From Octopus vulgaris (taxonomy: Eukaryota), in the NCBI GenBank assembly GCA_951406725.2, contig OX597817.1, positions 116,560,001 to 116,624,000 of the forward strand: a stretch of 64,000 nt of DNA, read 5' to 3'. A program made the translations under genes and the position numbers. Positions within the stretch are counted from its first letter, which is position 1. The number at the start of each line of letters is the position of its first letter. Positions 4,602 through 8,419 of the stretch are shown one piece after another. The notes beneath the pieces are model-generated. The model was not told the origin of the DNA. It saw only the letters and a program-made list of their open reading frames with translations, and searched no databases.

Positions 4602-4876
4602 TTATGATATCATTCTCGAAAAAGAAATCTAAGCATGCAGTTGTATCTACAGGACACAACTGCGGTTCGACTCACGTGAAAGGGATTCGTTTTCAATTTA
4701 CTAATACTTCTCTATGCATTTGATTAATTTTCTTTGAACACCTTAATATTTATTGATGACAATGAGTATGGCATGTTAATAATATAGTGCCCTCATACAG
4801 TTCTATATTTAAGATATGAGGAATTATGTATTTTATTTACATTTGACGGATATTTGTCCTCATCTTGTTTGTTGTT

Positions 4877-4922
4877 GACACAACATTTCGGTTGATATAC
4901 CCTCAAGCCTTCAGCAGGGGTC
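4877..4922 (-). ncRNA. Minimal type I hammerhead ribozyme motif, family 1 (degenerate)
   Basis: Minus strand reads gaccc-CTGCTGA-a-ggctt...caacc-GAAA-tgtt-gtgtc. Core A6 is mutated to C. Confidence 0.65.
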
Positions 4923-5180
4923 TTGGAGAAATTTTTGAACCTGGGTTCTCATTCCTAATGTATTTTTCGGTGTTCTTCTTCTTCTTCTTCTTCTTCTTCT
5001 TCTTATTATTATTATTATTATTATTATTATTATTATTATTATTATTATTATTATTATTATTATTATTATTATTATTATTATTATTGTTATTATTATTATT
5101 ATTATTATTATTATCATTATTATTATTATTATTATTATTATTATTATTATTATTATTATTATTATTATTATTATTATTAT

Positions 5181-5256
5181 TCAGGTCACTGCCTGGAATC
5201 GAACTCGTAATCTTGGGGTTAGTAGCCCGCGCTCTGAACCTCTACGCCATATGCCC
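5181..5256 (-). promoter_or_regulatory. tRNA-like Pol III cassette (A and B boxes) within the PLE derivative
   Basis: Minus strand reads GGGCATATGGCGTAGAGG...GCGGGCTACTAACCCC...GAGTTCGATTCC. The acceptor stem does not pair, so it is not a functional tRNA. Confidence 0.75.
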
Positions 5257-5397
5257 ACGGGCATATGGCGTAGAGGTTAATAATGATAATAATAATGATG
5301 ATGATAATAATAATAATAATAATAATAATAATGATAATAATGATAATAATAATAATAATAATAATAATAATAATAATAATAATAATAATAATAATAA

Positions 5398-7824
5398 GCA
5401 ACTGGAAGGCACCTGGGCATGACAAGATCCCCAACTTCTGGTTGAAATATCTAACAGGAATGCACAAAAAGCCGGCTGAAAACTTTAACAACATACTAGC
5501 AGAGCCAGAGACAATGCCTGAATGGCTAACGAAGGGGAAAACCATCTTAATTCCCAAATCAAATGAAACAGCAAAACCAGAAAACTACAGACCAATAACC
5601 TGCCTCCCTTACTATGTTCAAGGCATTTACTGCAGTGATATCGCAAAGGCTGAACAAGCACCTGGACGAAAACAAACTGTTCCCAGAAGAGCAGAAAGGA
5701 TGCCGCAAAGGCTCATATGGCTGTAAAGATCAACTAATGATTAATAAAGCCATAACTGAAGACAGCCACAGAAAGAAGAAAGGCCTCAGTATGGCCTGGA
5801 TTGACTACAAAAAGGCGTTTGATAGCATCCCCCACACATGGATCCTCGAAACACTAGCCATTAACAAAGTAGCATCAACAATCATAAAATTCATAGAGCA
5901 CTCTATGAATAAATGGCAAACAGTCCTACACCTCCAAACAAAAGAGGGACTCATGAAAACCAAAGACATCCCCATTAGAAGAGGAATATTCCAGGGAGAC
6001 ACGCTCTCTCCACTCCTTTTCTGCTTGGCACTGTCACCTCTATCTGATATGCTAAATAGAACTGGATGCGGATATAAATGTTACGGCAAAACGATCAGCC
6101 ACCTTTTATATATGGATGACCTAAAACTATACGCTGCAAATGACAAACAGCTGGAAACACTATTAAAGACAGTTCATGGATTTACCAAAGAAATAGATAT
6201 GAAATTTGGATTAGAAAAATGCGCCAAAGTAACCATGACAAGAGGAAAAATAGTTAAGAGTAACAACATCACACAAGATAAAACCAATGAAATAAAAGAA
6301 TTAGACCAAAGCCAAACTTACAAATACTTAGGAATCCATGAACTAGATAAGACACAACACACACAAATGAAAGAGAAAATAAAAAAGAATATTATAGACG
6401 AGTTAGAGCAATACTAAAAACAGAGCTCGATGCTAAAAACAAGATAATAGGTATCAACACTTTAGCTGTCCCAGTTATAAGTTACAGCTACAATATCCTT
6501 AACTGGAAACGAAATGAACTGACCAAAATAGATAGGAAAACAAGAAAAATAATGACAGGATCTAGGATGCATCACCCAAAATCTGACATAAAAAGACTAT
6601 ATATACAACGTATAGAAGGTGATAGAGGCCTTATTCAGCTGGAAAACTACTATAAAATAACCACCATAGGACTGCAAAAATATCTACTTCAGAAGGAAGG
6701 AAAACTTATCCAGATAGCGGCAAAACACGAGCGAAACAAAAAACTGTTCTCAGTATTTAAGGAAGCTGACAAATACAAACAAGAAATCATAGCACCTAAT
6801 AAACATGAAGAAGAAGAAGAAGAAGAAGAAGAAGAAGAAGAAGAAGAAGAAGAAGAAGAAGAAGAAGAAGAAGAAGAAGAAGAAGAAGAAACAACAAAAG
6901 CTATAAAATAAATGAAATCCAAACTAAAAATAGAACAGCAACGAACCATGATAAAACGATGGCAAGAAAAGCCCCTTCATGGTAAATACTGCACTAAACT
7001 AAACGCAAAAGAAATAGACAAAGAAAAATCCCAGCAATGGTTGAGAAGCTCAGGACTCAAAGCAGAAACAGAGGGATTTTTAATTGCAGCACAAGACCAA
7101 AGCCTCCCCACCAGAAATTACCAAAAACATGTAATGAAAAGAAATATTACAAGTAACTGCAGAATATGTGGAGATGGACAAGAAACAATAAATCATATTA
7201 TCTCTAGCTGCCCAGTCCTGGCTAAGAAGGAATATATTCACAGACATGACAGTGTTGGAACCTACATACATTGGAAGCTATGCCAACATTATGGAATAAC
7301 AACAGAAAAAAGATGGTATAGGCACACACCAGAAAAGGTCACAGAAAATGAGAAAGCAACTATACTCTGGGATATGCCGATACACACAGATAGAGAAATT
7401 AAGGCCAACAGACCAGATATAGTTGTCAGAGATCATGAAGAAAAAAATGCTTTCTAATTGATGTATCAATACCGGCAGATGACAACGTGTCTCTAAAAGA
7501 AATGGAGAAACTCTCAAAATACAAAGACCTGGAAATAGAGGTAACTAGAATGTGGAATCTGAAAACAGAAACAATTCCTATCATAGTAGGTGCATTAGGC
7601 ATGATAAAAAATATTCAGACAAATACATAACAAAAACACCAAGACTTACAAACACATATAACATACAGAAAACTGCACTACTAGGCACTGCACACATCCT
7701 ACGCAGAACACTTTCCATACAATAACCATCAGAGCATAACAACAAATCACAGCACATACCCAAGGCACACAGAGCTGCGCTCGGTAGTGAAGTGAAAGCA
7801 CGCTATAAAAATAAAACTACTGAA
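5398..7824 (+). mobile_element. 5'-truncated R4/Dong-type non-LTR retrotransposon (RT, CCHC zinc knuckle, restriction-like endonuclease), frameshifted
   Basis: Motifs NWKAPGHD, NYRPITCL, DYKKAFDS, GIFQGDTLSP, YMDD, YKYLG, CRICGDGQETINHIISSC, RHD and RPDIVV occur across ORFs 5614-6417, 6552-6911 and 6912-7457. (TAA)n flanks both sides, the known Dong target. Confidence 0.9.
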
Positions 7825-7940
7825 TGATAATAATAATAATAATAATAATAATAATAATAATAATAATAATGATAATAATAATAATAATAATATCGAAAAA
7901 TACCTTAGGAATGAGAACCCAGGTTCAAAACTTTCCGCAA

Positions 7941-7986
7941 GATACCTGATGAAGGCTGGGGGGTATATCAGTCAAAACGTTGTGTT
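7941..7986 (+). ncRNA. Minimal type I hammerhead ribozyme motif, family 1
   Basis: gatac-CTGATGA-a-ggctg(loop)cagtc-AAAA-cgtt-gtgtt. G12 is mutated to A. Stem III is the palindrome ACGT. Confidence 0.7.
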
Positions 7987-8419
7987 AACAACAAACGAGA
8001 TAAGGACAAATATCCGTCAAATGTAAATAATGCAAATAATGTTAATAATAGTGCTTTCCAGATCTCTACTTATTAGTTGCTACACTGAAAATTGAAGCAT
8101 TATTTTGTCATTTAAAATTTCAGCCCAGATAATCAATGTATAAATCAAAATTATTAAAATATTCACCTTGCCAAGACGTATTTCTGGTTTGAGTCTCGTC
8201 ACCTACCAAATTTGGAAACGGTTTTCTTCTGAAAGCTCTGATTGTTTCATTCTTTATGAGCGAGATTGAATAGCTAATGATGCAGAAACCTGGTTTCTGG
8301 TATTATAATAATGTCTTCTTATTTTCACTATGATCTGGCAGTTTGATACTTTTATTACCAACATGCGGACCATATCCCGAATCGGAGAATAAATGGCTCG
8401 TTAATATAGTGTGCTTGTT

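Follow-up and report, generated by a model that had tools for sequence, protein, structure and literature searches.

We have analysed a 64,000-nt stretch of the Octopus vulgaris genome (GenBank assembly GCA_951406725.2, contig OX597817.1, forward strand, positions 116,560,001 to 116,624,000), referred to here as the window, and in particular the unit at 4773–8054. The unit is a head-to-head pair of solo pseudo-long terminal repeats (pLTRs) of a Penelope-like element (PLE), enclosed in one target-site duplication (TSD) and interrupted by a long interspersed element (LINE). Its two arms are inverted and 84% complementary (4823–5040 against 7823–8040), their tails are 88% identical over the 137 nt compared, and they meet in a perfect hairpin with a fold z of -10.6 (Table 1). 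The 10-nt palindrome in the centre of this hairpin is the element's own, lying at positions -6 to +4 of its tRNA-like head. A preliminary description of the window had reported the inverted pLTRs, the TAA tracts, the tRNA-like head, a central perfect hairpin and a TSD-like repeat, and all of these were found as described; the repeat pairs with a 2-nt indel and is followed by 6 filler nt. The minus arm, as also reported, has no TTTT between the head and the pLTR end, and this holds down to 4791. The hammerhead ribozymes placed at both ends of the unit are indeed present in both arms, with cores that are mutated in both.

Table 1. Features of the unit and of a second family copy, in window coordinates. 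ORF, open reading frame; RT, reverse transcriptase; UTR, untranslated region.
Feature	Position	Strand	Remarks
Left TSD	4773–4790	+	pairs with 8039–8054, 2-nt indel
6-nt filler	4791–4796	.	between TSD and the family's long 3' end (...GAACTGT)
pLTR 3' part, long form	4797–4972	-	20 nt of 5' UTR and first 155 nt of the PLE ORF
ATG of minus-arm pLTR	4952–4950	-	
'Tail' extension of the long form, ~30 nt	about 4797–4826	-	
Minimal type I hammerhead	4877–4922	-	mutated here (CTGCTGA...GAAATGTT)
pLTR spacer, (AAT)n/(GAA)n	4973–5181	-	
tRNA-like head	5182–5256	-	+1 at 5256; best match host tRNA-Arg
A box	5249–5239	-	within tRNA-like head
B box	5204–5196	-	within tRNA-like head
Head-to-head junction hairpin	5237–5278	.	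perfect 20-bp stem (5237–5256 with 5259–5278), 2-nt centre; central 10-nt palindrome GCCC-AC-GGGC
Head of second arm, nt 1–20 only	5259–5278	+	remaining head lost, jump to (AAT)n tract
(AAT)n spacer, 5' part	5279–5397	+	
Dong/R4-type LINE	5398–7822	+	5'-truncated, broken; secondary insert in (AAT)n tract
(AAT)n spacer, 3' part	7823–7892	+	
pLTR 3' part, short form without extension	7893–8038	+	ATG 7911–7913
Hammerhead core of short form	7946–7981	+	G12-to-A change (CAAAACGTT)
Right TSD	8039–8054	+	
Second family copy	60654–61720	-	5'-truncated, broken PLE
RT-thumb and GIY-YIG remnant of second copy	about 61720–61008	-	then 3' UTR
Head of second copy	about 60979–60903	-	then (AAT)n, hammerhead, tail

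A few heads share a common 5' flank. In the second copy of the window this flank proved to be the last part of an RT-thumb/GIY-YIG frame, which identified the partner PLE. Searches with the flank matched at least 40 and at least 150 copies, from which 12 ORF-bearing copies were taken. The head lies about 30 nt past the RT/GIY-YIG stop codon in 11 of these 12; 10 of the 12 continue into the tail on that arm, one of the others ending early and one carrying a Dong element in its tract. At the other end, locus L228, from a set of 12 copies chosen for their 5' reach, has a partial pLTR that runs directly into the ORF N-terminus; the same junction is present in an inverted piece at L233. The ATG is at tail position 21, with 155 nt from the ATG to the long end, and the hammerhead core lies 34 nt into the ORF, overlapping codons 12–23. 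The layout of the element is thus head, (AAT)n, ATG, hammerhead over the ORF start, ORF, stop codon, about 30 nt, and the pLTR again. As for the protein, L181 has an open frame of 569 aa that contains RVT_1 and shares 28% identity with a second PLE family; the atlas neighbours of this protein carry RVT_1, HTH_animal and GIY-YIG, the last in one neighbour cluster. Pfam GIY-YIG itself was not matched in the profile search of the partner ORF, and a PDB search gave weak RT matches only. The stop-free majority frame carries the motifs YVDD, YSIPCSC..YKGE, IADH and KEA, and the L181 translation, read by eye, has no CX2-5CxxC linker between RT and endonuclease. Endonuclease-bearing PLEs are characterised by one ORF for RT and a GIY-YIG endonuclease with CCHH, by a pLTR in partial tandem that reaches over the ORF start, and by an inverted 5' copy, a 30–40-nt tail at one end and a variable TSD, and the family agrees with this description. 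The unit is therefore the pLTR of an autonomous Poseidon-type PLE and not a separate hybrid of a short interspersed element (SINE) and a retrozyme, as had been proposed; the assignment to the Penelope/Poseidon clade is based on the lack of a zinc-finger linker and on the layout, not on a tree.

Neptune-type families and a Nematis-like family were considered as partners and rejected, as neither has any sequence in common with the tail. The Neptune-type PLE is a high-copy family with many intact ORFs of 781 aa that ends in (TA)n tracts (L131:1706–4048, G000:C4 near 116.25 Mb, and many further loci), and it has a hammerhead-like motif of its own, TTGATAA...GAAACATG, with a U3-A8 pair instead of C3-G8. 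In the Nematis-like family (L166, L172) open frames reach 1,091 aa, and the 3' UTR is long and AT-rich.

An unbiased census of 40 evenly spaced 10-kb stretches (400 kb of the 2.80-Gb genome) found seven clusters of the family, five with head and tail, two with tail alone and none with head alone; the head is linked to the pLTR tail, as the preliminary description required, and is not mostly a tail-less SINE. Scaled to the genome this gives about 35,000–49,000 copies (95% range 11,000–100,000). The best 40 of 696 candidates from a head search, which were the ones scored, are 94–100% identical. Divergence from the consensus at non-CpG tail sites is about 4.7% for short and ORF-linked copies alike, and no column was diagnostic when 18 leader-linked arms were compared with 64 head-start arms (about 250 columns compared, lowest P 0.01), so the short copies form no lineage of their own. 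The distribution of tail 3' ends has two peaks about 30 nt apart, at 120–131 and 151–155 nt inside the ORF. Inverted pairs make up 36 of the 70 units examined, a count that leaves aside L010, which duplicates L009, and the loci of the window itself. In 31 of the 36 a single arm has the extension, in two both arms have it and in three neither; 15 of the 36 had been selected on the long end, and in the head-picked set the figure is 13 of 16. A TSD score of at least 8 was obtained for 22 of the 36 inverted units, compared with 4.4% of mismatched flank pairs. Homogenisation of the arms was considered and rejected, as arms within a unit differ like separate copies (10.5% against 11.0%), with shared variants slightly commoner between arms of one unit (0.67% against 0.29%). 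Palindromic head-to-head copies at L008 and L018 had no tail inside the 3-kb loci, and L018 has Dong in both arms.

The head was described previously as tRNA-like, and its A and B boxes and its similarity to a tRNA stand: among 31 host tRNA loci, out of 34 matches, the best is tRNA-Arg(TCG), with 46 of 74 nt identical (z 8.5), mainly at the boxes. Neither ARAGORN nor Rfam calls a tRNA in it at threshold, and the fold returned by ARAGORN at low threshold was not credible. The 5' ends were analysed in 36 loci unselected for their 5' end (29 tail-picked and seven from the census), binned by hand, with two alignments, reaching -14 and -17, scored as hairpin starts. The head is matched in 27 of the 36; 14 of these stop at about -8 to +1 and six at +3 to +10, while three stop inside the head and four continue into the UTR or ORF. 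In other words, 20 of the 24 copies that reach the head edge stop there (P<1e-11 even at a stop rate of 1% per nt), and head-starting and fold-back copies recur, as had been predicted. This pile-up points to a transcription start at the head edge. Starts at -6 to -2 are seen also without fold-back (L058, L102, L122), and arms joined via other microhomologies likewise stop at -6 to -2 (L019, L021, L023, L025); taken together, these starts make an RNA 5' end likelier than an annealing hot spot. As most copies begin at the head, a captured RNA polymerase III (Pol III) promoter is likely to be used for SINE-like offspring. TTTT is missing altogether from the majority sense strand, about 2.5 kb long, although 4.4 are expected (P 0.012, base shuffle; in its 5' part the consensus has a depth below 3 at 154 of 842 columns), real copies contain 0.4 TTTT per kb compared with 1.3–4.7 in Dong and Neptune-type copies, and Phe is encoded by TTC in 12 of 15 codons (P 0.053). 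As a sign of Pol III the depletion is suggestive only.

The LINE in the plus arm contains RT (RVT_1, E 4e-28) and zf-RVT, and has a C-terminal zinc knuckle, a restriction-like nuclease motif and an (AAT)n target as in Dong/R4; we take it to be a Dong element, following the name in the preliminary description rather than a reference Dong sequence. An AAT tract follows 12 of 12 complete Dong 3' ends, and at several loci Dong sits within the (AAT)n tracts of the PLE family. The LINE, rightly set apart as secondary in the preliminary description, is a later guest and not the mobiliser. Its frame contains (GAA)28, encoding poly-Glu, at window 6807–6890, and L059, L105 and L192 have a GAA tract at the corresponding point.

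We propose, with a probability of about 0.65, that the pLTR of this Poseidon-type PLE starts with a tRNA-derived A/B-box head and that the RT/GIY-YIG protein of the element copies a short RNA started there by Pol III. Transcription by Pol III would begin at about -6 to -2 of the head, and the short RNA would include the ORF-start region, to which the PLE protein would bind. Nicking of both target strands by the protein would be followed by cDNA synthesis from two internal sites, so that one arm becomes long and the other short. Each cDNA would terminate at its 3' end in the self-complementary GCCC-GT-GGGC, and these ends would either pair mutually or snap back, creating the hairpin junction. 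The Dong-type LINE inserted afterwards into one (AAT)n tract. The polarities of the junction hairpins (GT-short 6, AC-long 3, GT-long 3) do not discriminate snap-back from twin priming. In Poseidon of Anolis the hammerhead overlaps the ORF start and RT starts at two internal sites bounding the tail, and in vitro both strands are nicked and cleavage is dispensable for insertion (PMC11167929). The hammerhead is probably a passenger in the copying of the octopus element, since cleavage would separate the head from the RT start sites. Inverted arms, extension of the tail at one end and variable TSDs are standard marks of PLE insertion (PMC8557442, PMC3846280), and palindromes at inverted junctions and solo pLTRs are known for PLEs (PMC3846280). 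The mobilisation by a PLE that had been suggested is thus borne out by the TSDs, the inverted arms and the one-arm extension, and by the ORF-bearing copies that contain the unit. The palindrome and inverted arms, which had been presented as a special architecture, are ordinary PLE features (PMC3846280, PMC8557442). In a more far-reaching version, which we hold only tentatively and consider rather unlikely, the whole ORF would be transcribed by Pol III, TTTT would have been purged from the sense strand and the same promoter would flood the genome with SINE-like copies.

Several observations count against the proposal. No intact full-length copy was seen among the copies fetched, and the sole direct pLTR-ORF junction (L228) is without the head. 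The isoacceptor of the head is uncertain, tRNA-Ala scoring 54 and tRNA-Arg 60. The TTTT deficit is modest (P 0.012 by base shuffle, and 0.053 with a codon-aware null on 1.7 kb), and G4 runs are absent from the sense strand too (P 0.12). We infer the Pol III start at the head from genomic sequence, namely from the 5' pile-up and the absence of TTTT. In three RNA-seq runs of one study (about 6% of each run read; the organism may be a relative), 5,520–7,595 reads fell on a 351-nt copy, equally in both directions, 80% of them extended into unlike flanks, and there was no pile-up of starts on this copy, a pattern that fits passive read-through in host transcripts and is uninformative on Pol III or cleavage. 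Finally, Penelope pLTRs normally contain an RNA polymerase II (Pol II) start (PMC2377424), which would also give head-starting copies.

The main rival explanation, built on this last point, keeps the same PLE pLTR and has the Pol II mRNA start at the head of the 5' pLTR, solo pLTRs resulting from an internal RT start and the A and B boxes being a relic. It draws on the start site and internal promoter within the Penelope pLTR (PMC2377424), on the internal RT start near the ORF start (PMC11167929) and on the fact that short and ORF-linked copies are one sequence of one age; however, a start exactly at the edge of the tRNA-like head, boxes A and B that are intact and a sense strand free of TTTT would then all be coincidences, and we regard the explanation as possible though doubtful. 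If, instead, nothing started at the head, truncation or annealing of long RNAs might be favoured at the 10-nt palindrome or the structured head. Palindromes are known at PLE inverted junctions (PMC3846280) and many of the octopus junctions are centred on this one, but its stem is merely 3–4 bp and the stops at -6 to -2 are shared by non-inverted copies and by arms with other microhomologies, so that this possibility appears improbable.

The proposal of an independent SINE-retrozyme lineage, cycling via hammerhead cleavage, depends on the ribozyme. By the criteria for minimal type I hammerheads of PLEs (PMC4209133), the family consensus is complete, with the extra nucleotide after A9, the G10.1-C11.1 pair and a palindromic stem III, and the SINE-like Sm-alpha repeats offer a precedent (PMC6765202). 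The core is intact, however, in only 26 of 101 copies, and Rfam calls no hammerhead in the tail at threshold. Near the cut, 2 of 127 tail matches end and 2 of 127 start; there are no direct tandems among the 101 hammerhead-spanning tails. The three standard RNA-seq runs gave no pile-up of ends, and no cut-site joint was present among the joints listed. As the defining tandem hammerhead units were not found and the copy ends ignore the cut, the retrozyme reading fails, and since the head belongs to the autonomous element, with no diagnostic sites and an equal divergence of 4.7%, the independent lineage is already largely refuted and we consider it very improbable. The predicted fold of single hammerhead copies is no more stable than that of shuffled sequences (z -0.5 to -0.9), and in four of four copies folded (the L058 tail and window 7936–7998, 4868–4930 and 60762–60822) a predicted GUUGU/ACAAC hairpin overlaps the cut site and may keep the ribozyme off. 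Least credible of all is a tRNA SINE that depends for its mobilisation on the Dong LINE, via the common (AAT)n tract: Dong does end in (AAT)n, often inside the tracts of this family, but the copies run on for 140–175 nt beyond the tract to two fixed sites of PLE type, have no 3' sequence in common with Dong except simple repeats, and gave no tail-less heads among five in the census. Another dispersed repeat, unrelated in sequence to the PLE family, has a hammerhead-like GAAGAGCGTAGGCTCGAAACG motif (L076, L142, L178, L224).

The Poseidon-type pLTR proposed here resembles known Penelope/Poseidon elements (Poseidon of Anolis, PMC11167929; Adineta Penelope, PMC3846280; for an overview, PMC8557442) in its RT with C-terminal GIY-YIG and no zinc-finger linker, in the pLTR over the ORF start, the hammerhead at the ORF start and two 3' ends 30 nt apart, and in the inverted 5' pLTR, junction palindromes, variable TSDs and solo pLTRs. 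It differs from described PLE pLTRs, which have Pol II-type promoters, in beginning with a tRNA-derived A/B-box head, and from described PLEs in that head-starting solo copies outnumber ORF-linked ones about 5:1 in the sample examined. The unusual part of the unit is the tRNA head; the inverted arms, TSDs, palindrome and one-arm extension are known for PLEs. Ohshima and Okada reportedly described, in 1994, the tRNA-derived octopus SINE families OK, OR1 and OR2, which share with the short form a tRNA-Arg-like head, a length of about 300 nt, dispersion, high copy number and TSDs. Unlike tRNA-derived SINEs, which form their own lineage mobilised by a LINE via a common 3' tail, the short form has the start of a PLE ORF as its tail in place of a LINE 3' end, and the partner itself carries the head. 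The literature searched, including passages of cephalopod repeat papers (PMC9115989, PMC13282606, PMC8967140, PMC6962438) and of PMC4758252 and PMC3531059, describes no PLE pLTR with a tRNA head; as the sequences of OK/OR1/OR2, SINEBase and Repbase/Dfam were not compared, the short form may already be known by one of those SINE names or another.

The nearest combinations known, those of the TRIMp3 elements and of Sm-alpha, lie outside PLEs. In the TRIMp3 elements Cassandra, Helenus and Ajax a small-RNA promoter likewise lies in the terminal repeat, with its boxes kept and the cloverleaf lost, but these are non-autonomous LTR (long terminal repeat) elements, whereas in the octopus the autonomous PLE itself has the head; autonomous partners of TRIMp3 have been argued to need Pol II and to be unlikely to share the LTR (PMC10886601). 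Schistosome Sm-alpha and Sj-alpha also unite a Pol III-type promoter and a hammerhead in one short repeat, yet they form tandems with an active ribozyme, in contrast to the dispersed, monomeric or inverted octopus copies whose ends ignore the cut (PMC6765202). Animal non-LTR retrozymes share the type I hammerhead, pLTR-related sequence and proposed PLE mobilisation, but are tandem units with circular RNA, said to be promoterless, and no direct tandems were found here (PMC7761336; bioRxiv 10.64898/2026.07.22.740005).

In the usual view SINEs arise when a small-RNA promoter joins a LINE tail. Here an autonomous PLE seemingly carries the promoter itself and sheds tens of thousands of short copies, which would be another SINE-like route. 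With a sharp start and two fixed ends, these copies of one short template exist naturally in thousands, so that ideas on how the inverted repeats and tails of PLEs originate can be tested on them. Were the ORF itself transcribed by Pol III, this would contradict the expectation that autonomous elements use Pol II (PMC10886601); it would be a protein-coding Pol III unit, and a SINE being born inside its own partner.

Six organisms contain 0.3–0.7 of the sampled words of the pLTR unit, and among the listed holders of these words none is recorded as RNA. Elsewhere in the window, a long inverted-repeat hairpin at 4440–4600, with a sub-threshold mir-7131 match and a similar sequence in L089, is probably a repeat resembling miniature inverted-repeat transposable elements (MITEs). 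Tandem duplications of 177, 184 and 162 bp are present at 12642–13089, 46839–47206 and 62561–62885, respectively, and the first two resemble SINE tails.

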